Below are positions 5,653-23,036 of a DNA stretch of 64,000 nt, one piece after another (the first letter of the stretch is position 1; every line of letters begins with the position of its first letter). A model generated the notes under the pieces. That model did not search any database. It was given only the letters and a program-made list of their open reading frames with translations, and was not told where the DNA came from. The position numbers were made by a program, and so were the translations under genes. This stretch comes from Mycobacterium phage prophiFSAT01-1. The DNA is taken from sequence record BK061308.1; one strand, 5' to 3'.

Positions 5653-5687
5653 TCAACAACAACGGCACCATCAACGAAAGGCACGAA

Positions 5688-6668: not shown

Positions 6669-7021
6669 CGACCGTGAACACCCTCACCGAGTACCAGCGT
6701 AGAGCTGCCGAGACAGCTATCTACCCCGGTGCTGATGACATCGAAAGCGTAGACGGTTTGGCCTACGTAACAATGGGTCTCGTCGGCGAGGCTGGTGAGA
6801 TCGCGAATAAGGTCAAGAAGATCCTTCGGGATGACGGCGGTGTCATCACTGCTTCCGCTCGTTTGCGACTGGTCTTCGAGCTGGGGGATGTGCTCTGGTA
6901 CCTGGCGCAGACGGCGACCCAGCTGGGGATCGATCTGGATTCGATTGCGGGCATGAACATCGCCAAGCTGGCCTCGCGTTCTGAGCGCGGCACCCTGCAA
7001 GGGTCCGGTGATGCGCGGTGA
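6665..7021 (+). CDS. MazG-like nucleoside triphosphate pyrophosphohydrolase
   Basis: EAGE-x-K-x-RD metal-binding helix (LVGEAGEIANKVKKILRDD) and ELGDVLWYL motif. Confidence 0.7.
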   Translation: MTTVNTLTEYQRRAAETAIYPGADDIESVDGLAYVTMGLVGEAGEIANKVKKILRDDGGVITASARLRLVFELGDVLWYLAQTATQLGIDLDSIAGMNIAKLASRSERGTLQGSGDAR

Positions 7022-7509
7022 AGAAGAAGCGACTGCTGCGCCTTGTCGCCAATGAGCGTGAGCGCGCCGACAAGGCGACGCAGACGATTGAACGACTCAC
7101 TCGTGAGGGTGAACAGAATCGCCAGAATCACAAGGAAACTCGCGAGAAGCTACAACGCACGATGGGACTGATCCGCAAGGCTGAGCGTGCGACGGCGTAT
7201 CTCACGCTGCCTGAGTTCGGCTCAATTTCACACTGCCCGATGTGTGACGAGAGGCTTGAAGATATTCAGGTTCACCTCGTTGGCTGGACCCAGCCGGACA
7301 CGCCTTTCACGAAGTCATACAGCGTGCCCACAAGCGGCGGTAGTCCTTACCTGTCAAGCGGATTCGTTAACCGAATTGAATGGTTTGGCAGTGTCGATAG
7401 CGCTGACGAGAATGCTGACACTCCAGCGCATCTGGTCTATCAGTGTGGATGCGGCTACATCTTCCGCACCAAGACGCGCAAGGACACGCCGAGGGTGGTC
7501 ATCACATGA
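7018..7509 (+). CDS. hypothetical zinc-ribbon protein
   Basis: CPMCDE...CGCGY cysteine pairs and a coiled-coil N-terminus. Confidence 0.4.
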   Translation: MKKKRLLRLVANERERADKATQTIERLTREGEQNRQNHKETREKLQRTMGLIRKAERATAYLTLPEFGSISHCPMCDERLEDIQVHLVGWTQPDTPFTKSYSVPTSGGSPYLSSGFVNRIEWFGSVDSADENADTPAHLVYQCGCGYIFRTKTRKDTPRVVIT

Positions 7510-7694
7510 CCACACACAAGCGCTACGGCTACAGAGACAGGTATGACCGCGTGACCGGAGACAACGCACAGGCGCGGCGCCTGAATGCTCAGATAGCGAT
7601 GATCAGGCGCGCTCGCGAAACCGGGTTCCACATTACCGAGGTCGAGGCCAACCTGGCGGGCTTGCAGTTCAAGCCGCTCGACACCAAGCCGTAA
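7506..7694 (+). CDS. small hypothetical protein
   Basis: ATGA overlap with the upstream stop. Short. Confidence 0.3.
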   Translation: MTTHKRYGYRDRYDRVTGDNAQARRLNAQIAMIRRARETGFHITEVEANLAGLQFKPLDTKP

Positions 7695-7760
7695 CCGGCT
7701 GTGCCGGAACGGGATACGTGCGCCGCGCGTATCAACTACCAGGAATGAAAGGATCAACCA

Positions 7761-8225
7761 ATGAGTGATGACCTATTCGACGGTCCGGGCTCGGCCGATG
7801 TCATCAACTGGGAGGACCTGGAGAAGCGATTGCTACTTGTCCAACCCCTTGAGCTGAAGGTGGGAGTGCCGACCAAGAACTACGGCCCGAAGGATGCCAT
7901 TGAGGCCAACGTTCACGTGCTGGACGGCCCGGAGGCTGGCTCGGTGTACCGCAACGGGTACGTCTTCCCGCTGGTGCTGCAAGGTCAGATCAAGGGCAAC
8001 ATCGGAACTGGCCGTTTCAACCTTGGTCGTCTCGGCAAGGGTGTGCCCAAGCCGGGCCAGAAGCCGCCCTGGACACTGAGCGAGCCGACCGAGGATGAGA
8101 AGTCGCTGGCGCGAAAGTATCTCGCTAGCGACAAGTTCCAGCAGAACATGGCCGCGCCTGTCGCTGCGGCATCCGCACCAGCCAACGACCCATGGTCGAA
8201 CAACAGCGCGGAACCGCCGTTCTGA
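7761..8225 (+). CDS. hypothetical protein
   Basis: ORF preceded by the ATCAACTACCAGG motif and AAAGGA ribosome-binding site. Confidence 0.45.
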   Translation: MSDDLFDGPGSADVINWEDLEKRLLLVQPLELKVGVPTKNYGPKDAIEANVHVLDGPEAGSVYRNGYVFPLVLQGQIKGNIGTGRFNLGRLGKGVPKPGQKPPWTLSEPTEDEKSLARKYLASDKFQQNMAAPVAAASAPANDPWSNNSAEPPF

Positions 8226-8403
8226 TGAGCGGCCGAGGCTAGAAGCGGATCAACCCCCCGCCCGATCTGCTCGTCTCGGCAGGCGCGCCCCGCGCCCGAT
8301 CTCGTCCACAGTGTTTGGTTTCAGGTCCCAATCACTGACGGTCGGGGCGGGGCGCGCCACCCAAAACAACTGACACAACAAGCAAACCGACGCGGAGAAC
8401 GAG

Positions 8404-8613
8404 ATGAATGCGCCAGCACCCACCTGCAAGTGCGGTCACGACGATGACACGCATGTTGCGGGGTTCGGCCAGTGCCTCGGCTGCACGCACTGCCCTGACA
8501 TTCCGCACAACGCCAAGTCTGGGCACGTCTACAGCCGATGCCTATGCACCGAGTTCAAGCGCGACGATGAGAGCGCCAGCCAGACGGAGCGACTGATGGG
8601 AATGCAGTGGTGA
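8404..8613 (+). CDS. small Cys/His-rich protein
   Basis: CKCGHDDDTH...CLGCTHC...C pattern. A ribosome-binding site (GGAGAACGAG) precedes the ATG. Confidence 0.4.
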   Translation: MNAPAPTCKCGHDDDTHVAGFGQCLGCTHCPDIPHNAKSGHVYSRCLCTEFKRDDESASQTERLMGMQW

Positions 8614-8837
8614 GCGCCAAGACTATCCGTGCGCGTGAGATCGTCAATGAGGTCCGCAACGACGCCGCGAATGATGTCAAGAACTTCGACGGCCGTGAGC
8701 TGACTGGGCGACTGGTCGGCGAAATCAATGGCAACACAAACGGTCTCATCGTGGGTCTGGCCAATTGTATTGAGATGTTGGCGACCGAGATCGAGCGGCT
8801 TGAGAATCGGATGCCACCTCAACAGGGGTGGTGGTGA
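8607..8837 (+). CDS. hypothetical protein
   Basis: Overlapping, coupled ORF. Confidence 0.35.
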   Translation: MVSAKTIRAREIVNEVRNDAANDVKNFDGRELTGRLVGEINGNTNGLIVGLANCIEMLATEIERLENRMPPQQGWW

Positions 8838-9544
8838 TGTTCACCTACTCCACCTGCGTTACGTGCAACACGATCATGATCGTTACAGACCATGACCAGC
8901 GTCAGCACCCGGAGTGCGCAGAGAACGCGCCAGCGCCAACGCTGACGCGCGTGGAGCTGCTGACCGAGGAGTTACGCGCCGCACTCATTGCTGGCGACCA
9001 GTCTGTGTTCGATTCCAAGTTGGCTGAGCTGAATGTGATAGATGATCAGCCGCCACCGCTGGGCCCTTCGGCGCTGTTTTATGCCACAGAATATGGCTGG
9101 CCCGTGTTTCCGTTGGAGGTTGGGGGTAAGCGACCAGCTGTCCCGAAGAAGGATGGTGGCAACGGGTTCAAGGACGCGACGACCGATCCAGAGCGCATCA
9201 AGAAGTTCTGGACCAAGCACCCACTTTGCAACATCGGCATACCGACCGGCATCCATTTCGACGTGATCGATGTGGATGTGCCTGATGGATGGCTGTCGCT
9301 GCGCGACATGCTGAATGAGGATCGAGTGCCCGACATTCATGGTCGCGTGGCGACCTCATCTGGTGGTGTTCACCTTCTGATCGAACCCACCGGCGATGGC
9401 AACTCGGCCCGTATCGCGCCAGGTATCGACTACCGCGGCACGGGCGGTTATGTCGTGGCGCCACCCTCACGAATAGACCCCCAGCACCGCTGGTCGTGGA
9501 CGGTCAAGCCGTCACCGAAAGTAAAAGGGAGAGAGAAACAATGA
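8828..9544 (+). CDS. bifunctional DNA primase/polymerase (PrimPol) domain protein
   Basis: Prim-Pol N-terminal signature FYATEYGWPVFPL...GGKRPAV...GFKDATTDPERIKKFW...NIGIPTGIHFDVIDVD. Confidence 0.65.
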   Translation: MVVMFTYSTCVTCNTIMIVTDHDQRQHPECAENAPAPTLTRVELLTEELRAALIAGDQSVFDSKLAELNVIDDQPPPLGPSALFYATEYGWPVFPLEVGGKRPAVPKKDGGNGFKDATTDPERIKKFWTKHPLCNIGIPTGIHFDVIDVDVPDGWLSLRDMLNEDRVPDIHGRVATSSGGVHLLIEPTGDGNSARIAPGIDYRGTGGYVVAPPSRIDPQHRWSWTVKPSPKVKGREKQ

Positions 9545-9852
9545 ATGAATCAACTAACACCCATGAAGACCCCATCGTCAAGCATGTGGACTCCGAAGTC
9601 CTGCTAGACATCTGGCTCGATGGATTCTCCAGCGGCATGGCGACTTTGATCCTAAACGCATCCGAGGGGCACGACGACGCGCCACCTGAGATGGTGCAGG
9701 ACGCCATGGTCCAGAGAATCGTCAGCGAAATCACGAGCGACCCGGCGGCGATGGAGACAGCGCGTCAGAAGATCTTTGCGCGCGTGCTCGGCACTCCGCA
9801 GTTCGGGACCACCAAGCTCGACCTCGCGCGGGTGGATTCTTCCGATGAATGA
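9541..9852 (+). CDS. hypothetical protein
   Basis: ATGA coupling and an acidic protein. Confidence 0.4.
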   Translation: MNESTNTHEDPIVKHVDSEVLLDIWLDGFSSGMATLILNASEGHDDAPPEMVQDAMVQRIVSEITSDPAAMETARQKIFARVLGTPQFGTTKLDLARVDSSDE

Positions 9853-10321
9853 GCTGAATATGGCGATTCGCGAGGCGATCGCGGAGGCGAGCGACGACGC
9901 TACGCCGCAGCGTATCGCGGCGGGACTGGCCGAGCAGATGACCGAAAATGAGGCCAGAACGCACCTGGTGATGTTGATGACTGACGTTGTGCGCGCGCTC
10001 ATTCGCGAACGGCGCAACACGGCTCTGGCCAAAGCGATGAGCGAGCTACGCGGCGACAAAGCGAATCAGTCACCGAAACTGGCCGCGCGCCGTGAGTGGT
10101 GGCAGGAGATGCTTGAGTCACGCGTACACGTCGGCGCGAACGACTGGAAACGACTTGGCGACTGCACCGCAGGGGATCTGGAGTTCTGCATCGCCGAGCG
10201 AGAGATTCAGATCAATCGCACGCATCAGCAGATCGACAACTACCGGCATCTGATCAAGTTGATGGACGAGCACCACGCCGAGACGGTCGATCAGTTGCCA
10301 CGAGAGGCGCTGGCGGCCTGA
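9845..10321 (+). CDS. hypothetical protein
   Basis: Start overlaps the upstream stop. Helical protein. Confidence 0.4.
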   Translation: MNELNMAIREAIAEASDDATPQRIAAGLAEQMTENEARTHLVMLMTDVVRALIRERRNTALAKAMSELRGDKANQSPKLAARREWWQEMLESRVHVGANDWKRLGDCTAGDLEFCIAEREIQINRTHQQIDNYRHLIKLMDEHHAETVDQLPREALAA

Positions 10322-10541
10322 TGATTACAGACTTCCACCCGGACCAAGTTTTGAGCGCTAACCATATTTGCGTCGTTCGGGTGGAACCAAACTACCGAGT
10401 GCGACCAGTCTCGCGGTGTGACCCATGTGGCCGCCGTCGTACTCGGTTTCAAACTTCCACCTCGGCCCATATGTGGAGCGCTATCCAATCAGCATTCGCT
10501 CCGAGGTGGAACTCCATCACAACAACACAACGGAAGGATGA
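10322..10541. repeat. structured non-coding region: two related ~55-nt hairpin units
   Basis: Two stem-loops with arms TTCCACCCGG/CCGGGTGGAA and TTCCACCTCGG/CCGAGGTGGAA. Each loop contains GAGCGCTA and CATAT(T/G)TG. The region is 220 bp between replication-associated genes. Confidence 0.45.
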
Positions 10542-11279
10542 ATGATGGGAGCGATACTGCGTGACCCGTTGATGGGTCTCCATGCGGATGTGCTGAACGA
10601 TCTCGAATCAGTCAGGATCGCCAACGAGAATCGTCTGCGCACACTCACCGACACCGGCGAAGATGGCCACGGTCTGACGCTGGACAACGCCGAAGTGGCC
10701 CGCCTGGCGGCGTTGGTGGACGCGCTGAAAGATGCTGAGAAACAGGCGACATCGAACCTACAGAGGTCGATGCGCATACACCCACTGGGCAACTGGGCCA
10801 AGCAGATGACCGGCGTGGGTGAGAAGCAACTGGCGCGACTGCTGGCGGCTATCGGTGATCCGTACTGGAACGACCTGCACGATCGTCCACGGCTGGTCTC
10901 GGAGCTGTGGTCGTACGCTGGCTACGGAGTGATCGACGGAGCGGCACCGCGGCGGCAGCGAGGTGTCAAGAGCAACTGGTCCGATGACGCACGCATGCGC
11001 GCCCGACTCATCGCAGAGAAGTGCGTGATGCAGAAGCCGACTGCGCACTATCGCCAGGTCTACGACCGAGCGCGTGAGAAGTACGCGGATGCAACGCATG
11101 CCGTGACATGCAATCGCTGTGGTCCGAAGGGTAACCCAGCGGTCGCGGGGTCACCCCTGTCGGCGGGGCATCAACACGCGCGTGCGTTGCGCGTGGTGTC
11201 CAAGGAGCTGTTGCGCGATCTGTGGATCGAGTCGCGAAGGATTCATCAAGAGCGTGCGGAGGTTCTGATTGCGGCCTAG
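10542..11279 (+). CDS. protein resembling the C-terminal (Transposase_20/HhH) domain of IS110-family transposases, with no DEDD catalytic domain
   Basis: Segment MTGVGEKQLARLLAAIGDP...LWSYAGYGV...RQRGVKSNWSDDARMRARL matches the IS110 C-terminal domain pattern from memory. The N-terminus is a coiled coil only. Confidence 0.4.
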   Translation: MMGAILRDPLMGLHADVLNDLESVRIANENRLRTLTDTGEDGHGLTLDNAEVARLAALVDALKDAEKQATSNLQRSMRIHPLGNWAKQMTGVGEKQLARLLAAIGDPYWNDLHDRPRLVSELWSYAGYGVIDGAAPRRQRGVKSNWSDDARMRARLIAEKCVMQKPTAHYRQVYDRAREKYADATHAVTCNRCGPKGNPAVAGSPLSAGHQHARALRVVSKELLRDLWIESRRIHQERAEVLIAA

Positions 11280-11459
11280 AGATCAACTACCAGGCAACTA
11301 ATCATCAATCACAACAACGAAATTGGAGAATGCGATGAAGCGCTGGATATACAAATTCCTGGGCGTCCAAGTACCGGGGTACGACGAGACGCCCGCCTAC
11401 ACGGCGACGGTCAAGCGTCTCGGATTCGACCCGGAGACCCTGGCCTGGGTGGTGTCGGC

Positions 11460-11711
11460 ATGAGTGTTCTGCCGAGCACCGAAGAAGAACTTGAGTGGGA
11501 GAGCGGCATTGGTGCGTCTCTGGACAAGCTAATCAGAGAGCACCGAGACCAGACGCGAAAGATGGGCGGAACCCCGCCGCTGAAACTGCTGGCCGGATTG
11601 CTGCACCTCACGTACAAGGCGTATGGAACCGACGAGTTTCTGAAGATCGAAGATCTGATCAACCTGTTTATCGTTGCCATTGATCGGCTTGCGCAACAGG
11701 AGATGTCGTGA
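11460..11711 (+). CDS. small protein, member 1 of a tandem triplicated family (…IDRLAQQ C-terminus)
   Basis: Three consecutive ATGA-coupled paralogs share the motifs L-x-K/L...LI-x-L-x-V-A-I/V-DRLAQQ. Confidence 0.5.
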   Translation: MSVLPSTEEELEWESGIGASLDKLIREHRDQTRKMGGTPPLKLLAGLLHLTYKAYGTDEFLKIEDLINLFIVAIDRLAQQEMS

Positions 11712-11977
11712 TGATGGATGGGACGGAGTTCACCGCCGCTATCGCCGACAAGATCGGCCAATGGGCCAAGGATGTGAACGAAGAACTCGACGAGATGATC
11801 GGCGACCACATAAAGCTGATCAAATCTGTCGCGCCTGATCGCAACGTGGCACTAGTCAGCATCGCATCACGGTTCGCCACGATGCACGAGAATCCCGAGC
11901 AGGGTGAGATCAATGAGCTGTGCAGTCTGTTGGTACTAGCCATTGACCGCCTAGCGCAGCAGCGGGAGTCGTCGTGA
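11708..11977 (+). CDS. small protein, member 2 of the tandem family
   Basis: Same family as member 1; ATGA overlap. Confidence 0.5.
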   Translation: MMMDGTEFTAAIADKIGQWAKDVNEELDEMIGDHIKLIKSVAPDRNVALVSIASRFATMHENPEQGEINELCSLLVLAIDRLAQQRESS

Positions 11978-12219
11978 CGCACCCGTTCACACCCGTACAA
12001 GAGGCGGAAGCGTTCGCCTGGTACGCCAAAGTTGGTGCGGAGCTTGATGTGATGCTTGCTTCACAGCCGAAAACCGGGCCGCTGCCCGCGAAGTTCATCG
12101 CCGGAGTGATGGCGCTTGGAGCGTCGATGAGGCCGGAGCTGAAACTGGAGAACCTGATCGATCTACTGGTCGTTGCGGTGGATCGTCTTGCGCAGCAGCG
12201 AGGTACACCCAATGGCTAG
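11974..12219 (+). CDS. small protein, member 3 of the tandem family
   Basis: Same family as member 1; ATGA overlap. Confidence 0.5.
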   Translation: MTHPFTPVQEAEAFAWYAKVGAELDVMLASQPKTGPLPAKFIAGVMALGASMRPELKLENLIDLLVVAVDRLAQQRGTPNG

Positions 12220-12451
12220 ACAGTCTCGCACCGTCTACAGCTTCCCTGGCGAGCCTGAAGTGCAGTTCATGGGCATTTGCCATGACTGCAATCAGGCGCA
12301 GCCGTTCCTGAATGCACGGTCACGTGATGAGTGGGTGGACGACCATCGCACCTCTCACGGTCACCAGATCACGAAAACGGTTGAGGTGCATACCGGATTG
12401 GCCCGTGTCGAATGCACGATGAATTTTCAGGGAGAGGTGATGAAACGATGA
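12212..12451 (+). CDS. hypothetical protein
   Basis: Coupled ORF starting at MARQSR. Confidence 0.35.
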   Translation: MARQSRTVYSFPGEPEVQFMGICHDCNQAQPFLNARSRDEWVDDHRTSHGHQITKTVEVHTGLARVECTMNFQGEVMKR

Positions 12452-12981
12452 ACCAAGGGCCAAGCAACAAGCACTGGCTGCGAAAACTGCTGCGGCGTGA
12501 GCCGCATCAGCTCATATACAACAGTCATGGTGAGCTGTATCTGAGACGCTGGTACGTCATTCCGCGTAACCCGCTGCTGAATGTCTATGTCCACCAATTT
12601 ATTCACAGTGACGACGATCGCGCGCCACACGACCACCCGTGGTGGTTCGTGTCGTGGGTGCTCAAGGGTCACTACTTCGAGCACACCGACGCTGGCGTGA
12701 TCCGGCGCGAGCGTTGGTCGTGGGCGTTCCGGCGGGCAGTCCATCGGCACATCGTGAAGCTCGACACCGTTACGGTACAGGATCGATACGAGGATGGATC
12801 GTGGGCAAGAAGTGCTAGTCCGCAGGATGTTCCAGCGTGGACGCTGCTCATCACTGGCCGGCGCTTGCGCCAATGGGGATTCTGGTGCCCGACGCGGTAC
12901 ACGGTAGGACTGGAGCCGTATAACCCCGCCGCACGCTTTGTCCCGTGGCAGGACTTCGGCGCTGGTGGGTGCGGTGAGTAG
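12448..12981 (+). CDS. hypothetical protein
   Basis: ATGA overlap with the upstream gene. Confidence 0.4.
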   Translation: MNQGPSNKHWLRKLLRREPHQLIYNSHGELYLRRWYVIPRNPLLNVYVHQFIHSDDDRAPHDHPWWFVSWVLKGHYFEHTDAGVIRRERWSWAFRRAVHRHIVKLDTVTVQDRYEDGSWARSASPQDVPAWTLLITGRRLRQWGFWCPTRYTVGLEPYNPAARFVPWQDFGAGGCGE

Positions 12982-13657
12982 CCCATGCCTGGTACATCAC
13001 GTGGCCGTGGCCGCGGCCATCGCTATCCCGGTCGCAGCAGTGGGCTACGTCGCGCTGTTCTGGGAGCCACTGTCACGGGCGATCCCGTACTCCAGTGGCA
13101 TCTGTGCGAGCGGTGCGACAGACCATTCAGACACGTCAACATCAGAGCAAGGCTCTGCTACCTCTGCAACGAATCACAACGAAAGGTGTACGGAGACAGT
13201 GAAAACAACCATTGAACGCCTACGCGTCGAACGTGAAGGTGTCGTGAACTACCTGCGAAGCCTCGATGCCGAGATCGAGCGCGAGGAAATGTCAGGCATG
13301 CCGGTCGAGCCGAGCGAGCCGTTCGCGGTCGTCGCGTTCATCAAGGTTCGCGAGGACGACCAGCAACCGTTGAACTACGCAGCCATTCGCAACGGCGACA
13401 GGTGGGTGCTCACGCAGGACTCACGGTCCAACTACCCGCAGCGCTCGCGCTGCTGGGACGAACTGATGCGGTGGATCGGCCCGGACGAATGGCCGACCGT
13501 CCGCGTGTTGGTCGAGAAGCGGGACAGCCCGGTCAGTACCGATCAGATCAACATCCACGTGACTGACTCCATTGGTGGTGCTGGTGGTGGCGGCGGATTC
13601 GGTATTGGTGGCCGCCTCAGTGATCAAGCCAAACTCGGTAGGCCCGGCATTCTCTGA
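12938..13657 (+). CDS. hypothetical protein with a Gly-rich C-terminus
   Basis: Long ORF whose exact start is uncertain. C-terminal GGAGGGGGFGIGG tail. Confidence 0.4.
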   Translation: MSRGRTSALVGAVSSPCLVHHVAVAAAIAIPVAAVGYVALFWEPLSRAIPYSSGICASGATDHSDTSTSEQGSATSATNHNERCTETVKTTIERLRVEREGVVNYLRSLDAEIEREEMSGMPVEPSEPFAVVAFIKVREDDQQPLNYAAIRNGDRWVLTQDSRSNYPQRSRCWDELMRWIGPDEWPTVRVLVEKRDSPVSTDQINIHVTDSIGGAGGGGGFGIGGRLSDQAKLGRPGIL

Positions 13658-13829
13658 TGTTCGTTCTGCGAATGTGGTGGCATTCGTTTCGCGGTCATGG
13701 CGTACTCGGTGAGTCAACCGGGCGCGGTGACCGCGCGGCGTTTATGTGCTCATGTGGACGCGTATGGGAGCTGTAGTGCGCCCGTGTGGCGCACAATGAG
13801 AGGCAATCACAACACATCCGAGGAGTGCC

Positions 13830-14267
13830 ATGGGTTCGGAAACTGAGCTGATCAGCATGATCGAGATGACAATTACCGGGCACTGGCCAGACAAGCAGCA
13901 GGACACCGAGGGTGTGTCGACGCTGAGAACGGTTGCCACGGACATCGCCCGCGCCGTCAGCTATGCCGCTTTCCCGCAGCGTGTTCTAAACGGCCCTGGG
14001 CCGAGCGAGCCGATCGACTGGGGTGAGGCCATGCGCAGAGGCGGTATCACCGCCGTGGACGAGTCACCCGCCGTCAAGTACGTGCACACCATTCATGCTC
14101 CGCAGGCGATCATTGCGCGGCTGCTGGCAGGTGAAGACCTGACGAGGATGACTCGCGAAGAGTTTTTCGACACCCCCGGTGAGTGGACCGCTCTTGGTGT
14201 CGATGTTGAGACGGCGCAGCGTTTCGCGGCCATCGGTTCGGCGTCCGAAGACGGTCCGTGGATCTAG
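13830..14267 (+). CDS. hypothetical protein
   Basis: ORF with a CA-rich leader and GAGGAG ribosome-binding site upstream. Confidence 0.45.
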   Translation: MGSETELISMIEMTITGHWPDKQQDTEGVSTLRTVATDIARAVSYAAFPQRVLNGPGPSEPIDWGEAMRRGGITAVDESPAVKYVHTIHAPQAIIARLLAGEDLTRMTREEFFDTPGEWTALGVDVETAQRFAAIGSASEDGPWI

Positions 14268-14270
14268 TCC

Positions 14271-15914
14271 GTGACGGCGATGAGTGACGAAAACAATGAC
14301 GAGACGGTAACGGAACCGCCCGAAGACAATGGCGGCCAAGTCATCTCATTCAAAGAACGCATGCGCGGATTCCGCGGAAGCGACGCCGAACCGCCACCGG
14401 CACCGCGGCGCGCGACGCCTGTCGAATTCATCGGTGACGATCGCTACGGCCGCGCGGCGATGGAAAAGGAGCTGGCGATCTTGGCCGCGACACCCGAGGG
14501 TGCGCGCAACCAGCAGCTCAACACGTCCTCATTCAGCCTCGCGGGTCTGGTGCGCGCCGGGAGGATCGACGAACAGACGGCCATCAACAACCTGGTGAGC
14601 ACAGCGCGGGCTATCGGCCTAGCTGAGAGCGAGATCATGCCGACGATCCGGTCGGCGTTCCGCGGCAGTGACGCCAAAGTCGGCGCGCGGCAGGTGCCCG
14701 AGCGCGAGGAGATACCGGCCGCGTTCACGATCGACCCGAATGACCCGAGTGACACGGCTGACCCTGCTGATGCGTCGGATGTCGCGGCGGCCGAGATCAG
14801 CGACGACGAGGCAGAGCGACTACTGGCGCACCGTAGACGCGTCCAGCAGTCCGCATACGACCTCCGCGTGTCAGACGAAGGCCGAGCGCTCTACGCGGCC
14901 CAGCAGGCGCATGAGCTAGGCCAAACCGCGCCAGATCCGGTGTCGCTGACCGACTTCTTGAGCATTCCCGACGAGGACGCTGTCTATCGCATCGGTGAGC
15001 TACTGCCGGTCGGTGGCCGCGCGCTACTGGCGGCCCAGTACAAGGCCGGCAAGACGACGATGATGGCCAACCTGCTGCGCTCGCTGGCCGATGGTGTGTC
15101 ATTCCTCGGGAAGTTCACGACGACTCAGGTTGAGCGGGTCACGGTGATCGATACCGAGCTAGATGAGCGCATGTTTCGCAGATGGTTACGCGCGCAGGGC
15201 ATTCAGAACACCGAACGTGTGCAGGTGCTCCCGATGAAGGGTCATCTTGCGACGTTCAACATCATCGACCCGAGCACCCGTGCATCCTGGGCGGCCAAGC
15301 TACATGGGTCGGATTTCATCATTCTGGACTGCCTACGGCCCTGTCTGGACGCCCTCGGGCTCTCCGAGGACAAGGACGCCGGTAAGTACCTGGTCGCCTG
15401 GGATGCGTTCGTGGCCGAGACTGGGGCCGACGAGTCGATCGTGGTCCATCACATGGGCCACAGCGCCGAGCGCAGCCGCGGCGATTCCCGGCTGCTCGAT
15501 TGGCCGGATGTGCTCTGGAAAATCGTGCGGGAGCAGGCCGAGGAGGGGGAGGACCCGGCAGCCGATGGGGGTAAGCGGTTCTTCTCGGCGCACGGTCGAG
15601 ACGTGGCAGTGGCCGAAGGTTTGCTGGAGTACCTGCCGGAGACTGGCGGGTTGCTACTGCATGAGGGTGGCCGAGCGGCAACGAAAGCGCGCGACGGGCT
15701 GCCGCTGGTGGTGCAGATTCTCTCTGATCCCGAGTTCATCGGCGGCCTTGGCATGCGAGCGCTGACCGCCAAACTGGGCGAGAGCGGTGTCGGTTTCCAT
15801 GCCGCGCGCAAGATCATCAAGACCGCAATCGAGGAGTCCGTCATTCTCGTCGGTGAGGGTGCCCGTAACGCCAAGGTCATGACATTAAACCCATCTGCGG
15901 CGAGGTGGTCATGA
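14271..15914 (+). CDS. DNA primase/helicase (PriCT-like N-terminal domain plus RepA/DnaB-like P-loop ATPase)
   Basis: N-terminal AAMEKELAILAATPEGARNQQLNTSSFSLAGLVRAG (PriCT-like) and Walker A AAQYKAGKTTMMANLL. Confidence 0.65.
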   Translation: MTAMSDENNDETVTEPPEDNGGQVISFKERMRGFRGSDAEPPPAPRRATPVEFIGDDRYGRAAMEKELAILAATPEGARNQQLNTSSFSLAGLVRAGRIDEQTAINNLVSTARAIGLAESEIMPTIRSAFRGSDAKVGARQVPEREEIPAAFTIDPNDPSDTADPADASDVAAAEISDDEAERLLAHRRRVQQSAYDLRVSDEGRALYAAQQAHELGQTAPDPVSLTDFLSIPDEDAVYRIGELLPVGGRALLAAQYKAGKTTMMANLLRSLADGVSFLGKFTTTQVERVTVIDTELDERMFRRWLRAQGIQNTERVQVLPMKGHLATFNIIDPSTRASWAAKLHGSDFIILDCLRPCLDALGLSEDKDAGKYLVAWDAFVAETGADESIVVHHMGHSAERSRGDSRLLDWPDVLWKIVREQAEEGEDPAADGGKRFFSAHGRDVAVAEGLLEYLPETGGLLLHEGGRAATKARDGLPLVVQILSDPEFIGGLGMRALTAKLGESGVGFHAARKIIKTAIEESVILVGEGARNAKVMTLNPSAARWS

Positions 15915-16252
15915 CGCTGCGCAGATGCTTCGACTGTTTCAGTGTTTCAGCCAGTGAAACAGTCGAGTTGAAACAGTCAGCACGGTGTGTGACTGGCGAC
16001 TGTTTCAGAAACCCTAAAGGGTTTCTGAACACAGGTCGCGAAACAGTCACCCCGTTCACCGTATGGCTGACCGGCTCGAAACAGTGGATGAAACCCATCC
16101 GCGACGTGTTGGGTGGTCTCGCGTTCACGTTGGGTGGCCTCGTCGTGGCATCCACATCAAGCGCTGGGACATCAATCATCAACCGACGTGTGATTGAGCG
16201 TCGGGAGTCGAAACAACGCTCCAGGGAGGTTCTGGGATGTCTCACGCAGTGA
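15905..16252 (+). CDS. possible small ORF overlapping an iteron-like repeat array (coding status uncertain)
   Basis: ATGA-coupled to the primase stop, but the 5' 150 nt are AT-enriched and packed with GAAACAGTC repeats. Confidence 0.25.
   Translation: MVMTLRRCFDCFSVSASETVELKQSARCVTGDCFRNPKGFLNTGRETVTPFTVWLTGSKQWMKPIRDVLGGLAFTLGGLVVASTSSAGTSIINRRVIERRESKQRSREVLGCLTQ
15931..16090. repeat. iteron-like array: about 7 copies of GAAACAGTC / GACTGTTTC plus the palindrome CAGAAACCC-TAAA-GGGTTTCTG
   Basis: Repeats read directly from the sequence in both orientations. The array lies immediately downstream of the primase/helicase gene. Confidence 0.5.
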
Positions 16253-16704
16253 ACCTGTCGCCAGGTGGCGGACTACCCCCGCCGTTCGTGTCCTTGTTCG
16301 TGCCGGGTAAGGCAGCGCCCCAAGGGTCCAAACGTCACGTAGGCCGCGGCGTGCTGGTGGAAAGCTCCAAGGACCTCAAGCCGTGGCGGTCTGAGGTCGC
16401 ATACTTCGCTCAGCGAGCGATGTCCGGTCGGCCTATCTACACCCAGACACCGTTAGCTGTCGAACTCGGTTTCGTCATGCCGCGGCCAACATCGGCGCCC
16501 AAAACCAAAACGCCTCCGGCCATCAAACGGCCCGACACCGACAAACTGGAGCGGGCCATTCTGGATGCTCTGACGCATGTCGTCTATGACGACGATTCGG
16601 TGATCATCGATCTGCACGGGCGAAAACGAATCGCCGAGATAGGCGAGACGCCCGGCGTATCCATCTTCGTCACCCCGGTGGACGAGGCGGGCTGGAAATG
16701 GTAG
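16237..16704 (+). CDS. RusA-like Holliday junction resolvase
   Basis: GKAAPQGSKRH motif and RPDTDKLERAILDALT motif. Confidence 0.7.
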   Translation: MSHAVNLSPGGGLPPPFVSLFVPGKAAPQGSKRHVGRGVLVESSKDLKPWRSEVAYFAQRAMSGRPIYTQTPLAVELGFVMPRPTSAPKTKTPPAIKRPDTDKLERAILDALTHVVYDDDSVIIDLHGRKRIAEIGETPGVSIFVTPVDEAGWKW

Positions 16705-16833
16705 GCGTGACGTTTGGGGCGCTCCAGCCCGGTCAGTGTGCGCTCTGCGGCAAGGGTTACTCACTGGGTGCGCGAGTGACGTACCGCAGCCACGACGAAG
16801 AGCCAGTGCATGTCATCTGTGCGGAGCTGGCCG

Positions 16834-17088
16834 ATGCCGAGTAGAGAATTCGAGGCGGCCTACGAGGGTCACTGTTTCGACTGCGGCGAGATTATCGCAG
16901 TCGGTCAGCACGTCGTCTATGACGATGACGGCGATCTGGTGCATGCCGGGTGTTACAACGACCCAACGTCCTTCGACCCCAGCGGCGATGACGAGGTGCG
17001 CCCCGTCAAGTTTGTCGAGGTTAAAGAGCGCGCCGACCGAAAACCCTGCGAGTCCTGCCATCTAGTCCATGCCGGTGAGTGTTTCTGA
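16834..17088 (+). CDS. small Cys-rich protein
   Basis: CFDCGE...HAGC...CESCH pattern, coupled to neighbours. Confidence 0.35.
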   Translation: MPSREFEAAYEGHCFDCGEIIAVGQHVVYDDDGDLVHAGCYNDPTSFDPSGDDEVRPVKFVEVKERADRKPCESCHLVHAGECF

Positions 17089-17453
17089 TGACCGATCAAG
17101 ACGTACTGGAGGCCCTGGAGTTCACACCCGATCACGGGCCTTGTGAGTGCGTCAAATGCGGGCTGAACGAAGACCAGCCTGAGCACGAGGGTAGGTGCGG
17201 TAAGCCAGCCAAGTATCGCGCCGAGATGCACATGATCGACAAGTGCAACCAGCCGGGGCTTACCCCAAATGGCGGGACGATCTTCTTCGTCTGTGAGCGC
17301 TGCATGCTGATCGGCGAGCGCGTCGCGGCGCGGATAGCTGCCGCCAATCAACGGCTGATCAAGGAACGCGACTTCGTGATGATGTGCACCACATGTCAAC
17401 GGCCACTCAATGATCCACACAACATCATGGAGGTTGAACCACTCGATGAGTGA
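17088..17453 (+). CDS. small Cys-rich protein
   Basis: Multiple CxxC pairs (CECVKCG, CERCM, CTTCQ). Confidence 0.35.
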   Translation: MTDQDVLEALEFTPDHGPCECVKCGLNEDQPEHEGRCGKPAKYRAEMHMIDKCNQPGLTPNGGTIFFVCERCMLIGERVAARIAAANQRLIKERDFVMMCTTCQRPLNDPHNIMEVEPLDE

Positions 17454-18357
17454 GATACGCCGATGCAGGGCTGGCCGACTGTGCGACGGCTACGAAGTAG
17501 TCGCCGGGCAGCGTCGTGCCGCCGAAGTGAACGGCGACGCTCATCTATGCGAGGCGTGCCAGCTCAAGACGCGAAAACTGATCCGCCGCATGCCCAATGA
17601 CTGGTGCAAGCTGAAACTGACGATCGGGGAGAAGCGAGCGCGCGGCCAGACCGAGGAAATCAGCCGCAGACCCAAACCCGGATCAAAGGTACTGATCAAC
17701 GTGGACACCGCCGAGCTGATGAGCGAGATCGTCGATGTCTGCGATCGCTCTACACGGCTGGCACTAGGCAGGGGTGAGCGCAAGCGCTCCCGTGGTGACG
17801 TGGTGATCGGACAGTCATCGGCCGACAGATACGACTTCCAGGTGGTGCTCAAAGCCGTTGACGTGGTGACAAAGAACATCGACGTGCTGGCGTCCTCGCA
17901 AGAGGGAACCATGTTGGCTCTCAAGGTGTTCGACCTCGGCTATCGCGTCCGCCGACATCTCGGCGAGACACTGTACCGAGAGAAGCAACACCTACCCTGC
18001 CCCGTGTGCGGCGAGCTAGCGCTAGTCAAGGAGGTGCAGGACAAACGTCAAAGCGTCAGCTCAGCCAACCAAGAGGAGATCACGCCAGAGGTCATCCGCT
18101 GCCTGGCGTGCAACGGTGGGCCCAACCAGGACGGCACATGGACGGAGGCTGAGTATAAGTGGCTCCAGTCGATGGTTCTCACAGATCAGGAGGAGCACGA
18201 GATGCTGAAATGGCTACTTGCGGAGGCGGAATGGCAGCGCGACGTATGCGCCTGGCTGGCCGCCGAACGGCAGTGGTACCTAGAGCTGGCGTGCGCCACC
18301 ACCGGCATGCCGTGGGGACACTTCCTGACCGCGCTGGAGGGTACGGCCGACCGATGA
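17446..18357 (+). CDS. hypothetical protein with Zn-finger-like cysteines
   Basis: CEAC, CPVCG and CLACNG motifs. Confidence 0.45.
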   Translation: MSEIRRCRAGRLCDGYEVVAGQRRAAEVNGDAHLCEACQLKTRKLIRRMPNDWCKLKLTIGEKRARGQTEEISRRPKPGSKVLINVDTAELMSEIVDVCDRSTRLALGRGERKRSRGDVVIGQSSADRYDFQVVLKAVDVVTKNIDVLASSQEGTMLALKVFDLGYRVRRHLGETLYREKQHLPCPVCGELALVKEVQDKRQSVSSANQEEITPEVIRCLACNGGPNQDGTWTEAEYKWLQSMVLTDQEEHEMLKWLLAEAEWQRDVCAWLAAERQWYLELACATTGMPWGHFLTALEGTADR

Positions 18358-18728
18358 GCACCAACGTCCACGTCTACCGAGAATCGCGCGAGGTTAGGAA
18401 CAAGCGCATCGCGATCATCGCGATCGACCTACTGACGCGAGTGGTCGCTGGTGACATCGAGGACCCAGCCGCGGCGCTCGCGCGATTCCATCAGGCACGC
18501 GTTGATGAGCACGTGTACTGGACGCAGCCGAGCATGATGCCGTACGACCCTGATCAGTGGTTGACGGCCAATGAGATGGCCGAGATCGCTGACGTGCTGC
18601 CTAGCACGGTTCAGCAATGGAACTACCGCGGTTACATTACAAGTTCCGAGGCGCACGACGGAACCAAGCTGTACAACGTCGGCGAGGTGAATCGCTACCT
18701 CGCACGCAGGCGACCACGCGAAGCCTGA
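18354..18728 (+). CDS. helix-turn-helix DNA-binding protein (MerR/excisionase-like HTH)
   Basis: Segment LTANEMAEIADVLPSTVQQWNYRGYI. ATGA coupling. Last gene of the rightward early block. Confidence 0.5.
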   Translation: MSTNVHVYRESREVRNKRIAIIAIDLLTRVVAGDIEDPAAALARFHQARVDEHVYWTQPSMMPYDPDQWLTANEMAEIADVLPSTVQQWNYRGYITSSEAHDGTKLYNVGEVNRYLARRRPREA

Positions 18729-18778
18729 TCTATACTGATCAGGCACCTTTCCGCAAAGGTGTCGTTGTTGTGATGGAC

Positions 18779-18818
18779 GAAGGCCCTCGGACCCCTCCGG
18801 GGGCCTTCGTTGCGTTTC
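18779..18818 (+). terminator. hairpin cluster / putative terminator at the end of the early block
   Basis: GAAGGCCC...GGGCCTTC 8-bp stem followed by GTTGCGTTTC. Preceded by two smaller hairpins at 18724-18761. Confidence 0.4.
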
Positions 18819-18926
18819 GGGCGCGCCATCAACTACCAGGCAACACAATGTCCACTACACGTCGTATCATGAGCAACTGACAGACCCATCCCAAAATCAG
18901 GTCCAGGCCTTCCGTCGGAGGCGATT

Positions 18927-20351
18927 TTGAATCCATCAGTGCTGATCAATGGGGTCGAGTTCGTACCGTCCGACACGCCGACGCAATCGCATATCGGCGT
19001 CGCGATCACGACGCGGAACCGCCCCGAAGTCCTCGCCACAACACTTGAGCATGTCCGGCGTTTTACGCCGGGTGCGACGGTGGTTGTCGTTGACGACGCA
19101 TCCACGCCGCCAGGGGTAGGCATCACCTACCGATTCCCCGAGCGTGCCGGGGTCGCCGCGGCCAAGAACAAGTGCATAGAGCTGCTGGTCGACGCTGGCT
19201 GTACTGAGCTGTTCCTTCTCGATGATGACTGCTACCCGGTCAAAGAGGGCTGGACCGATCTCTATATCGACAACCCAGAGCCTCACCTGTGCTATCTGTT
19301 CAAGACGCTGGACGCGAATGGCAAGCCGGTGGGCACTCCTGAGATCATCTATGAAGATGGTCGGACGCGCGCATTCAGTCACCCCATGGGATGCCTGATC
19401 TACATGAATCACAGCGTGATTGAGCGCTGCGGCGGCATGCGGACCATCTTTGGGGTGTGGGGCCATGAGCACGTCGAGTACAGCCTTCGTGTCAACAACA
19501 CCGGCTTGACCACCAATGCGTTTCAAGATGCCGCAGGCTCGGCTGAGTTCATCTACTCAATGGATGAGCACTGGCACAAGCATCCCGAGTTCAAGCGCAG
19601 TGTGAGCGATCGTGAGCGCCAGACGCAGATTGAGCGCAACGATCATCTGCTGGCCGAGCTGCGCGATACAACGCACGGGTTCGTCCCATACCGTCAGCTG
19701 GGCAATGAAGTCATCACCACCATGTTGACGAAAGTGGTTGATCCACAGCGTAAGAACGCTTCCAAGTTGGTGTCAGCCGACTTTCAGGTCTGGCGCAAGT
19801 CGATCAGAGGTGCGAAGTCGATCATTCTGGCCGACGAACCCTATGAGCACGACGGAGGCGCCGGGGCGTCTGTGGAGTCGGGTCTGAATCCATACCTCCA
19901 GCGCTGGATAGTCTGCTATCGCTATCTGCGCGACCACGAGAGCGCGTGGGTATGGATGACCGATGGCACCGACGTTGAGATGTTGCGCGAGCCCTGGGGC
20001 TTGATGCGTGAGGGCGCGCTGTACGTCGGGTATGAGCCGACCGTCCTGGACATCCCCTGGATGCGCCAGAACCATCCGCCGTACCAACAGTGGATAGCGG
20101 AGAACGGCGGTGCCCAACTGCTCAACGCGGGCGTCGTAGGCGGCGATCACGCGACGCTGCTGGACTTCACAGCGGACATGGTGCGCGAGATCTTCCGCGT
20201 GGGCCCAAGCAAGGTCAAGGGCGACATGGCGGCATTCAATTATGTTGCACGGTCGCCCAAGTGGCGCGAGCGGATCGTTTGGGGCAGTCAATGGCTCACC
20301 ACATTCAAGGCTAACGAACGCAACGACTGGAGCGTCTGGAAGCACAAATGA
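18927..20351 (+). CDS. glycosyltransferase (GT2-like N-terminal domain)
   Basis: VAITTRNRPEVLATTLEHV...VVVVDDAST and DDD motifs. 474 aa. First gene of a three-gene glycosylation cassette. Confidence 0.6.
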   Translation: MNPSVLINGVEFVPSDTPTQSHIGVAITTRNRPEVLATTLEHVRRFTPGATVVVVDDASTPPGVGITYRFPERAGVAAAKNKCIELLVDAGCTELFLLDDDCYPVKEGWTDLYIDNPEPHLCYLFKTLDANGKPVGTPEIIYEDGRTRAFSHPMGCLIYMNHSVIERCGGMRTIFGVWGHEHVEYSLRVNNTGLTTNAFQDAAGSAEFIYSMDEHWHKHPEFKRSVSDRERQTQIERNDHLLAELRDTTHGFVPYRQLGNEVITTMLTKVVDPQRKNASKLVSADFQVWRKSIRGAKSIILADEPYEHDGGAGASVESGLNPYLQRWIVCYRYLRDHESAWVWMTDGTDVEMLREPWGLMREGALYVGYEPTVLDIPWMRQNHPPYQQWIAENGGAQLLNAGVVGGDHATLLDFTADMVREIFRVGPSKVKGDMAAFNYVARSPKWRERIVWGSQWLTTFKANERNDWSVWKHK

Positions 20352-21025
20352 CGACACTCGATGAGATCGCACAGAAGCACGGCACAGACAAGTCATCGCT
20401 GAATCACAACTACACGGCGATCTATGAGCCACTGCTAGAACCGCTGCGCGACAAGCCGATAACACTGCTGGAGCTAGGCTGGGGTGGTCACGAGGACCCC
20501 GACAGCGGCGGCAACAGCGCGCGCGCCTGGGCCGAGTACTTCACCCATCCTGGCGCCGAGATCATCGTGGTCGAGCTGGAGTCCAAGAACGTAAGACCAG
20601 AAGACGACGAGCGAATCACCCTCTGGCAGGGCTCGCAGGACGATCAGGCGATGATCGATCAGATCGCAGCGGTGTACGGCCCGTTCGATGTGATCATTGA
20701 TGACGCAAGTCATCTGTCGTCCAAGACGATTCGCTCATTCGAGCTGCTGTTTCGCCATGTGACACCAGGCGGCATCTACGTCGTGGAGGACACGCACGCG
20801 TCCTACCATGAGCACTACTACGGGTCGATGGAAGCCAACGAGGACCCCGAGAAGCGCAGACGTGATGGTGAGTTCACCATGATGCAGTTCTTTCAGCGGT
20901 TGACCGATGAGGTCAACTACCGCGGGCGCACAGAGCTTGACCTGTTTCCCTCGCGATACGCCTGGAACGTGCCCGTTGAGTCCATCGCGTTCTACTTCAA
21001 CATGCTGGTTGCGAAGCGGCGATGA
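20348..21025 (+). CDS. SAM-dependent O-methyltransferase (class I)
   Basis: KHGTDKSSLNHNYTAIYEPLL...LLELGWGG...VIIDDASH...GGIYVVED. Confidence 0.6.
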   Translation: MTTLDEIAQKHGTDKSSLNHNYTAIYEPLLEPLRDKPITLLELGWGGHEDPDSGGNSARAWAEYFTHPGAEIIVVELESKNVRPEDDERITLWQGSQDDQAMIDQIAAVYGPFDVIIDDASHLSSKTIRSFELLFRHVTPGGIYVVEDTHASYHEHYYGSMEANEDPEKRRRDGEFTMMQFFQRLTDEVNYRGRTELDLFPSRYAWNVPVESIAFYFNMLVAKRR

Positions 21026-21735
21026 ACGTCCAAATTGGGGTTGTCGCGCATCAGGATCGAATACTTCAGGCCGAGGACATGATCGGGGCTGTTGACGCGA
21101 ACGTGGTCGCGTATGACGATGGCGATCTCGGTTGCGAGGGTAACCATCGTCGTGTGTGGTCGATGCTGACCGCGTATGACTCTGACTGGAGTGTCGTACT
21201 CGAAGACGACGCGCAGCCTGTCGAGGGCTTTCGCGCACAACTGGAATCAGCTTTGGCGGTTGCGCCTACGCCGATCGTCTCGCTGTATCTGGGCAAGGGG
21301 AGACCCGAGTTCGCGCAGGCCAGCATCCGCACGATCGCTCGCGCGCTGTCACCGGAGGAGCCGGCCGCCCCGTGCTGGCTCACTGGCCATGTACTGCTGC
21401 ACGCCGTAGGTGTGGCCCTCCGTACACCGCTGGTGCGGAGCATGCTGGAGCATCTGGCACAGCCTCCCGCAGTGTTCATGGCACAGGACCACGCGATAGA
21501 GCACTGGGCCAACGCAGCAGGGCATCGCATCGGATATACCTGGCCCAGCTTGGTGAATCATGCTGATACACCAACGGTTATCGATGAGCATCCCGATGGT
21601 GTACCCCGTGGGCCACGCATAGTTGACGGGGCCATAGTGGTGACCCCACGTAGGGGGTGGCGGGTTGGTGCACGCGAGCATTGGTCGAGCGATGAGGTCA
21701 AGCTGGCCTTGAGGAGACCGCATGTACATCGCTGA
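21022..21735 (+). CDS. glycosyltransferase-like protein
   Basis: Coupled to the methyltransferase. Composition resembles small phage glycosyltransferases; family not confirmed. Confidence 0.4.
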   Translation: MNVQIGVVAHQDRILQAEDMIGAVDANVVAYDDGDLGCEGNHRRVWSMLTAYDSDWSVVLEDDAQPVEGFRAQLESALAVAPTPIVSLYLGKGRPEFAQASIRTIARALSPEEPAAPCWLTGHVLLHAVGVALRTPLVRSMLEHLAQPPAVFMAQDHAIEHWANAAGHRIGYTWPSLVNHADTPTVIDEHPDGVPRGPRIVDGAIVVTPRRGWRVGAREHWSSDEVKLALRRPHVHR

Positions 21736-22021
21736 TCCGTATCCCTCTGATCATGGTGGATCATCCGAGTTCGCAGGTGGTGGCAGGCAGCGGGTGTACA
21801 TCACTGCTGACCACACTGTGCTGATAGATGGCGTGCAGGTGCCGGGTCTCATTGCCGAGGGTGGGGTGACGGTACACCGAGGTAGTACCGATACCAACAC
21901 GCTCAACACCTTGACCTTCACACTCTTGGTCTCAGACATAGAGATCGATGACGTTGTGGTTGAGGACGTTACGGTGCTCGAACAAGTCACCGAAGACATC
22001 AACGACGCATCACAAGACTGA
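21722..22021 (+). CDS. hypothetical protein
   Basis: ORF overlapping its neighbours. Confidence 0.35.
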   Translation: MYIADPYPSDHGGSSEFAGGGRQRVYITADHTVLIDGVQVPGLIAEGGVTVHRGSTDTNTLNTLTFTLLVSDIEIDDVVVEDVTVLEQVTEDINDASQD

Positions 22022-22022
22022 G

Positions 22023-22331
22023 ATGGTGTGGGCGGGTGACGGTCGAGGCACTGGGACCAACGTTCCGGCGTCTGTACGGCGCGCTGTGCGCATCAGAGAC
22101 AACGATGAGTGCCAGTTGCGCTACGACGGATGCACGGGCGTCTACGAAGAGCTGGACCACAAAGACGGTGTGACCCAACGGGGCATCGATAGGCGCATGA
22201 CCCTCACCGTGAGTGAACTCCAGTGCGTATGCAGCCCATGCCACAAGAAGAAGACGGCTAAGCAAGCGGCTCAAGGTCGTTCCCGCAAGCGGTACCGGGA
22301 CCCAGAGCCACACCCAGGACGGAACCGATAG
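22023..22331 (+). CDS. HNH endonuclease
   Basis: CQLRYDGCTG...LDHKDG...CSPCHKKK HNH motif. Position just upstream of the terminase genes is typical of the end of a cos-phage genome. Confidence 0.7.
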   Translation: MVWAGDGRGTGTNVPASVRRAVRIRDNDECQLRYDGCTGVYEELDHKDGVTQRGIDRRMTLTVSELQCVCSPCHKKKTAKQAAQGRSRKRYRDPEPHPGRNR

Positions 22332-22547
22332 CCCACGCGGGCATCGGAGGCTGGGGAGGGGAACCCCCTGGGGCCCCGGAAATCCCCGGTTGGCATAGGC
22401 GCTGGGGCTCCGCCTGGGTCTGGGCCTTTTCGACCCCAGCTGAAAACATGCAGAAAAACCGCAGTTCAGGCACTGTTTCGTGAGTGTTTCAGTGCCAGCC
22501 CTGACCGAAACGGTCGCGCGAAACGCGCACAGAAAGAGCAGGCACAC
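22332..22547. other. putative cos/packaging-initiation region between HNH and TerS
   Basis: Non-coding 215 bp, GC-rich with hairpins. Two further copies of the GTTTCAG/CGAAAC motif (22471-22530). Confidence 0.3.
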
Positions 22548-23036
22548 ATGGCTGGAATAGGCCCGCGTCCCAAGGACCCGGATCGGCTCGCAGGACACGG
22601 CGCGCGCCGCGGTCGCGACAACATAATGCGCATCATCCCCGCTAAGCCTGTTGAACAGCCTCCGCTACCGCAGTTCGACCTTGAGGTCAGCGTTGACGGT
22701 CAGATAGTCGCCCAACAGTTCAAGTGGCCCGCGCGGACGGTCGAGTGGTGGCAGATGTGGAAGGAATCGCCGCTGTCGAAGGAGTTCACTTCGACGGACT
22801 GGTCAGAACTGCTTGATACCGCGGTGCTGCACGCCCGGTACTGGACTGGCGACGTGAAAGTGGCCGCCGAACTGCGGTTGCGCGTTGCCAAATTCGGCGC
22901 GACACCGGAAGACCGCGCTCGTCTGCGTATTCAGTTCGCCGCGGCCAATGAGGCCGACAAGAGGGCTATCCAGCCGAGCGGGAAGTCCGATGGCGGGTCC
23001 AAAGGGCGGTACGGGCCGCTGGGGTCGACGGGCTAA
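22548..23036 (+). CDS. terminase small subunit
   Basis: N-terminal MAGIGPRPKDPDRLAGHGARRG, typical of actinophage TerS, immediately upstream of TerL. Confidence 0.65.
   Translation: MAGIGPRPKDPDRLAGHGARRGRDNIMRIIPAKPVEQPPLPQFDLEVSVDGQIVAQQFKWPARTVEWWQMWKESPLSKEFTSTDWSELLDTAVLHARYWTGDVKVAAELRLRVAKFGATPEDRARLRIQFAAANEADKRAIQPSGKSDGGSKGRYGPLGSTG

Follow-up and report, generated by a model that had tools for sequence, protein, structure and literature searches.

A strand-fixed intergenic motif at the joints of the lytic operon in MabR-cluster prophages: candidate secondary operators

Why would a temperate phage keep nearly the same short sequence, always on the same strand, in front of several of its genes? 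This question is raised by Mycobacterium phage prophiFSAT01-1 (sequence record BK061308.1), of which we analyzed a stretch of 64,000 nucleotides (nt), hereafter the window. A preliminary description had reported an intergenic motif in three copies, at about 7729, 11282, and 18828, and had compared it to the start-associated sequences (SAS) of some mycobacteriophage clusters or to a shared promoter or operator. Our results confirm that the motif is real and occurs far beyond chance. The 17-mer ATCAACTACCAGGCAAC is present exactly at 11282-11298 and 18828-18844, both on the + strand, whereas the third copy begins at 7731 and is less exact: ATCAACTACCAGGAATG (7731-7747) matches the 17-mer at 14 of 17 positions, with the 13-nt core ATCAACTACCAGG intact and the remainder different. 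A fourth intergenic copy, which had been overlooked, lies at 52150-52166 (GTCAACTACCGGGCTAC), ahead of the ATG of the phage sliding-clamp gene at 52206. With up to three mismatches allowed, the 17-mer has five matches in the window against 0.09 expected, a number reached in no shuffle, and the degenerate consensus RTCAAYTACYRGR has exactly four, here called S1-S4, against 0.01 expected from shuffles. All four consensus sites are on the + strand, as originally proposed, and all lie between genes; the only exact 9-mer core within a gene is at 20913. The consensus has no match in those leftward units that are reported to be expressed in lysogeny (PMC9434293).

The rightward operon has 14 gaps of at least 30 nt, and four of them, 55-210 nt long, contain the four sites. 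S1 lies in a 66-nt gap before the homologue of gp20 (ATG 7761), S2 in a 55-nt gap before a 42-codon gene (ATG 11335) and followed by a CA-rich leader, S3 in the 210-nt gap between a helix-turn-helix (HTH) gene ending at 18728 and a glycosyltransferase gene, and S4 in an 83-nt gap before the clamp gene. From the end of the 17-mer to the next real start codon there are 13 nt (7761), 36 nt (11335), 82-94 nt (18927/18939), and 39 nt (52206), rather than the 15-55 nt first given, and this spread of 13-94 nt argues against a direct role in translation initiation. An ATG 4 nt past S3 opens a 10-codon open reading frame (ORF), but it is not a conserved gene because its frame is broken in FVLQ01-1; a leader peptide at S3 was rejected on the basis of the same frameshift. 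The hairpin-rich gene end that had been described before each copy is found at 7731 and 18828 and is absent at 11282 and 52150. Ahead of S1, a predicted hairpin on the + strand (GATACGTGCGCCGCGCGTATC; 7713-7733) covers the first 3 nt of the site with its 3' arm and is itself preceded by a smaller predicted hairpin (outer stem 7689-7712). Two terminator-like hairpins, both on the + strand, stand upstream of S3, one at 18742-18763 and the other, a 16-bp GC-rich stem with a T-rich tail (GTTGCGTTTCGGG; 18776-18811), 16 nt from the site.

Is the motif conserved in related genomes? A megablast search with positions 7000-20000 returned four MabR-cluster prophages from Mycobacteroides abscessus and M. 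chelonae, the closest being McProf (91% identity over 88% of the query), and by this comparison the window is a MabR-cluster prophage. Its genes were annotated by tblastn transfer from McProf and FSIL01-1. The left edge of the window falls within a DNA methylase gene, and thus the integrase, repressor, cro, and xis genes lie just beyond it. S1-S4 are all conserved in McProf, FSIL01-1, FVLQ01-1, and the IMG/VR member L132, and S1 is identical in these four genomes; S4 is conserved in all five MabR genomes, including FSQJ01-1. In complete relatives, the 3' end of cro holds one more site, S0 (in McProf ATCAATTACCAGACAAC, in the last cro codons, about 25 nt before xis and about 20 nt past a hairpin with a T-run), bringing the count to five where the window has four. 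In every genome examined, S0-S4 are on the + strand in the rightward operon. Among close relatives, the 13-nt core differs only by transitions, A/G at positions 1, 11, and 13 (position 11 varying at S3) and C/T at positions 6 and 10, whereas the flanking leaders of orthologous sites show transversions as well. The divergent FSQJ01-1 keeps S4, has a degraded S1 and a replaced S3, and reads ATCAACCA(G/C)TAGACC at both S0 and S2.

Comparison with more distant phages suggests that the motif is tied to particular positions. The gp20 protein encoded after S1 belongs to no known family and has homologues in DS6A (gp72, 61% identity), in several Mycobacterium sp. prophages, and in metagenomic contigs; the homologue in L140, from a Mycobacterium sp. 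metagenome-assembled genome, is 56% identical. No homologue was found in a species-representative genome collection, and one rearranged remnant, L141, was left out of the comparison. The same two joints, the end of cro and the gap upstream of the gp20 homologue, are occupied in DS6A and in two Mycobacterium sp. prophages, often by lineage-specific variants. In DS6A, the S1 joint reads GTCAACTACCAAGC directly past the upstream stop codon, with the rest of the gap unrelated, and related copies precede gp73 and the clamp gene (GTCAACCACGAAAC); the DS6A variant is GTCAAC..A...C. L140 has GTCAACTACCAGGCAAC at S0, identical to S2 and S3 of the window at 16 of 17 positions, and ATCAATTACCAGACAAC at S1. 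The lineage L137 keeps S0 and S1 with an altered center (ATCAAACGTCAGGCAAC and ATCAAACGTGAAGCAGA, with ATCAAACGT common to both), and the corresponding joints of L138 read ATCAACCACTAAGC and GTCAAACACCAACC. The hairpin before S1 is retained with other stem sequences in FSQJ01-1, L137, and L140. Copies within one genome tend toward that lineage's own variant (L137, FSQJ01-1, DS6A), as co-evolution of the sites with a phage-encoded factor would lead one to expect. Because the same joints are occupied at 50-60% protein identity by lineage-specific variants, selection appears to act on the motif sequence itself, and on this comparative evidence the element is old and bound to particular joints.

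What might the factor be? The motif resembles elements over the predicted early lytic promoters of McProf and DS6A and, in two other lineages, elements of the immunity region. The intergenic region between repressor and cro in McProf contains five CTAGTAG repeats and one predicted promoter, TTGACA(2786)-18-GATGAT. Two sequences overlap this promoter on the other strand: ATCAACTACTAGC, which matches the motif at 11 of 13 positions and covers the spacer and the -10 element, and GTCAACCACTGAT, which covers the -35 element. In DS6A, GTCAACTAGCAAGC, which matches the DS6A S1 at 13 of 14 positions, covers the -35 element of a predicted promoter next to the repressor gene (TTGACG-17-CATATT), and another promoter-like site is overlapped by a further inverted copy. 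When each lineage's S variant was compared with its own repressor/cro region, with other windows of the same genome as background, the best match was 13/14 in DS6A (reached by 0 of 421 background windows), 12/17 in L140 (1 of 123), 12/15 in FSQJ01-1 (10 of 473), and 11/13 in McProf (14 of 458); the best match in L137 (10/17) was not significant. These matches are on the - strand in McProf, DS6A, and FSQJ01-1, and L140 has one on each strand. The putative operator of L137 (TTGCCTACTAGGCAAC) has CTACYAGGCAAC in common with S2 and S3.

Across these lineages, the repressors are homologues with 47-51% identity, and the helix KAQRWNQ, which we take to be the recognition helix, is invariant in all of them; a shared core in the DNA sites would fit with this invariance. 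The MabR repressor belongs to no Pfam family and has no sequence match in the PDB at E<=10. In a low-confidence AlphaFold2 model (predicted local distance difference test score 58), the N-terminal domain consists of five helices and resembles XRE/434 Cro-type folds; the top 50 fold matches include no Cluster A repressor. An HTH protein encoded at 56277-56645 was considered as a paralogue and set aside, since it has no similarity to the repressor. Of the earlier suggestion of a shared promoter or operator, then, the operator part is favored by sequence, through the resemblance to and co-variation with immunity-region elements, and the promoter part is not.

Of the systems already known, the SAS of Cluster K are a poor fit. 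The SAS is a 13-bp sequence (GGGATAGGAGCCC) with the Shine-Dalgarno core AGGAG, of which a genome has 11-19 copies, each 3-7 bp ahead of a start codon (PMC3203893). The S motif is likewise an asymmetric repeat in one orientation, before nonstructural genes with a larger upstream gap, but RTCAAYTACYRGR is a different sequence that lacks AGGAG, and it stands at variable distances of 13-94 nt from starts in only 4-5 copies, leaving the proposed resemblance to SAS without support. The stoperators of Cluster A phages (L5, Bxb1, TipsytheTRex) and of MabJ prophages are closer. MabJ prophages carry a Cluster A-type system: an operator overlies the early lytic promoter, asymmetric copies that face the other way lie in the narrow gaps between genes of the transcribed operon, and the repressor is proposed to stop elongation at these dispersed sites (PMC9934374, PMC9283540); the MabJ stoperator consensus contains TTgACA (PMC9934374). 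Like these 13-14 bp sites, S sites are asymmetric and lie in short intergenic spaces in one orientation; in McProf and DS6A they are also close, though not identical, to an inverted sequence on the predicted early lytic promoter. They also hold the reverse complement of a -35-like hexamer, TGTCAA/ATCAA. The consensus of the L5 stoperator is GGTGGMTGTCAAG. Unlike the Cluster A repressor, a monomer with an HTH plus a 'Stoperator' domain, the MabR repressor is modeled with an XRE/434-like N terminus.

Because the layout is the same as in MabJ, S sites may be secondary sites for the immunity repressor and/or Cro. We tentatively favor a model, which we hold a little short of even, in which they are secondary, orientation-fixed operators that act like Cluster A and MabJ stoperators through an unrelated XRE-type repressor at about five sites. 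In this model, S sites would mark the joints of the long rightward lytic operon and would be bound by the gp3-type immunity repressor, possibly also by Cro. In the prophage, repressor at these sites would halt RNA polymerase that leaks from the early lytic promoter or passes weak terminators, such that termination at the joints would become repressor dependent and leaky terminators would be turned into efficient stops in the lysogen. Both the binding of repressor or Cro to S sites and the block of elongation by that binding are inferred from sequence, and the likeness to stoperators is a claim about the mode of working, not about family membership. Extra repressor sites of this kind, which would help to keep lytic genes silent, have no earlier description in this phage group: the description of MabR mentions no promoter, operator, or intergenic motif, the published text on McProf RNA sequencing is silent on the S-site joints, and the motif string was not found in the phage literature searched. 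Exact matching in IMG/VR was uninformative, with at least 120 single and apparently random matches for a 14-mer and four unrelated single matches for a 16-mer.

Several observations weigh against secondary operators. There are only about five S sites per genome, plus about five immunity-region repeats, compared with 14-30 or more sites in known stoperator systems. The S consensus is consistently unlike the five CTAGTAG repeats of the MabR immunity region (CTACCRGG versus CTACTAG). The similarity in McProf is only modestly significant, being equaled in about 3% of background windows, and none is seen in L137. A dimeric XRE/434-type HTH, as suggested by the low-confidence model, should prefer palindromes, and it offers no obvious reason for strict orientation. 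S4 precedes a region that is said to be expressed in lysogeny. Finally, each site reads in the sense direction within an mRNA leader, with G-poor, CA-rich sequence after it, so that a role in RNA would account for strand and position just as well.

Such a role would have the unpaired sequence AUCAACUACCAGG act in the mRNA, at the 5' boundary of CA-rich leaders. A phage or host factor for translation, processing, or stability of the downstream cistron might bind there, or the motif could serve Rho loading or polarity in the manner of lambda rut after cro. All copies are in the sense direction upstream of a gene, the motif is predicted to be unpaired at S0 and S1 and mostly unpaired at S3, the G-poor, CA-rich sequence after it is predicted to be unstructured, and other early leaders are also CA-rich. 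Variation in the core of orthologous sites is restricted to A/G or C/T, which wobble pairing would tolerate. The lambda nutR/tR1 region lies just after cro, and nut consists of boxA followed by the boxB hairpin, upstream of the terminators that are overridden. S0 similarly lies directly after cro, near a terminator-like hairpin and with a C-rich, G-poor stretch, but no boxB-like hairpin follows the motif, the operon has five copies where lambda has two, and no N-like protein was identified. Moreover, the motif stands downstream of the hairpin and T-run; hairpins upstream of the motif are not ones at which it could prevent termination. An RNA element would also leave unexplained the inverted copies over the -35 elements of rightward promoter-like sequences, two of these copies in DS6A lack any leftward gene downstream, and no Rfam family matched anywhere in the window. 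We regard an RNA-level leader element as unlikely, if worth keeping in mind. One form of pairing was set aside altogether. The core ACTACCAGG (7736-7743, 11287-11294, 18833-18840) is the exact complement of CCUGGUAGU, a 16S rRNA segment (the 806R primer site) that is universally conserved. Because this segment is paired in helix 24, the match is probably a coincidence, and the DS6A variants of the motif break the pairing of ACUACCAGG with it.

Since S0, S1, and S3 (three of the five sites) stand 0-20 nt past terminator-like hairpins, something must drive the genes downstream, and the sites could be internal promoters or sites for a phage activator that restart transcription past the terminators for middle or late genes. 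An HTH gene has its 3' end immediately before S3, and a hexamer of the form TANNNT (TATCAT, 18865-18870) lies 20 nt past S3 and is retained as TACACT in FSQJ01-1, so that S3 alone may have a local promoter. In all five genomes, the S4 motif also abuts a hexamer whose second letter is A and whose sixth is T. However, a sigma-70-type -35/-10 pair with 16-18 nt spacing was found at no S site in 7000-23000, manual inspection of S4 and its relatives revealed no shared promoter element, and no -10 or -35 sequence recurs at a fixed distance across S0-S4. Promoter-like sequences of this phage group look canonical (TTGACA-18-GATGAT, TTGACG-17-CATATT), unlike the motif, and a promoter function for the sites seems to us distinctly improbable. 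An antisense promoter was also rejected: the reverse complement of the motif has TTGAY, yet manual inspection found no -10 element after it at any site. Least probable of all, and very much so in our judgment, is that the sites are recombination boundary sequences at module junctions, or gene-conversion repeats with no regulatory role. S2 does mark the start of homology between genomes (37-68% identity upstream versus 78-87% downstream), with similarity beginning exactly at the motif and a 1.5-kb insertion in the window ending there, but S1, S3, and S4 are not junctions, their flanks being 81-99% identical on both sides, and the persistence of lineage-specific variants at the same joints at 50-60% protein identity indicates selection.

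Other features of these joints were noted in their own right. In McProf (L002), a hairpin with a T-run (CTTTTTCAGCC or similar) lies at 3090-3126, within the 3' end of the cro gene and 11-20 nt ahead of S0; it is kept in all lineages, with equivalents in L137, L138, L140, and FSQJ01-1, and resembles a tR1-like terminator inside the cro reading frame. The strong terminator-like hairpin at 18776-18811 is conserved in FSQJ01-1 with its upper stem and loop changed. Between S3 and the glycosyltransferase start, the stretch 18845-18938 is conserved even in FSQJ01-1 (CTGACAGAYCCATCYCAAAATCAGGTCCAGGCC) and ends in a hairpin and T-run (18907-18922 plus GATTTTG), with compensatory stem changes in FSQJ01-1. 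It had no match in Rfam; together with the strong upstream terminator, it looks like a region that controls the glycosyltransferase/late block, as an attenuator or a small RNA. After gp20 comes a gap of 178 nt (8226-8403) in which long, GC-rich inverted repeats (ccccgcccgatct...ggtcggggcgggg) precede a CA-rich leader; it is likely another terminator or control joint, here with no S site. Leaders of the early region are CA-rich and G-poor at 1782-1823, 5653-5687, 8350-8403, 11299-11334, and 13800-13829 (CACAACAAC, ATCAACAACAAC, CAATCACAACA), as they are in FSQJ01-1, L136, and L138, and the ATCAAC/CAAC ends of the S motif blend into them. In DS6A (L135+L134), the motif heads a repeat of about 27 nt (RTCAACYACNARRCGNNRCAGCGACAA) in three copies, at 28580, 46809, and 56371, the third within the annotated gp87.

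A second family of repeats is palindromic. TGGTAGA-N4-TCTACCA occurs at 55345-55412, 56219-56232, 57200-57213, 59265-59278, and 59357-59370, and also within a gene at 26970. Three of these palindromes stand in tandem in the divergent region between a leftward ADP-ribosyl-glycohydrolase block and a rightward DUF2786 gene, and the half-site CTACCA is also the core of the S motif. The same palindrome occurs in DS6A as GTAGAC-NN-GTCTAC, where it follows TTGAC boxes and directly abuts ATG starts in at least 3 of 10 copies; judged by this arrangement, these copies look like promoters of leaderless genes. As for the wider layout of the window, the rightward genes run in the order early, replication, glycosyltransferase, structural, and lysis, and the right arm has mixed gene orientation and a polymorphic toxin cassette. 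The 1.5-kb segment 9853-11279, which ends 2 nt before S2, is not present in McProf or FSIL01-1 and has three ORFs (about 9849-10321, 10321-10545, and 10542-11279) that belong to no Pfam family. On the - strand, 60893-63145 encodes a WXG-100-associated toxin with EspA-like TPR repeats, only 28% identical to that of McProf, beside an ORF of no known family (60123-60956) that is probably a different immunity gene; the whole, 60084-63145, looks like a swapped polymorphic-toxin cassette.

If secondary operators are borne out, silencing by dispersed, oriented operator copies would not be peculiar to Cluster A-type repressors; temperate phages of mycobacteria would have arrived at it repeatedly, in this case via an unrelated repressor. 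A more far-reaching version, which we consider rather doubtful, is that MabR- and DS6A-like phages have a stoperator-type silencing system that arose independently of Cluster A, in which an XRE-type repressor would act at a few operator-like sites of fixed orientation, directly past weak terminators at the joints after cro and before gp20, the glycosyltransferase/late block, and the clamp, making termination there repressor dependent, with the sites co-evolving with the repressor. Otherwise, the motif is a conserved and unexplained cis element of a clinically interesting phage group. MabR prophages are common in clinical M. abscessus, and whiB7-dependent drug resistance in M. chelonae has been connected with them; DS6A is a phage of the tuberculosis complex with use in reporter work. 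For both, secondary operators would provide a map of regulatory joints, which could help in building lytic derivatives or in predicting immunity groups.

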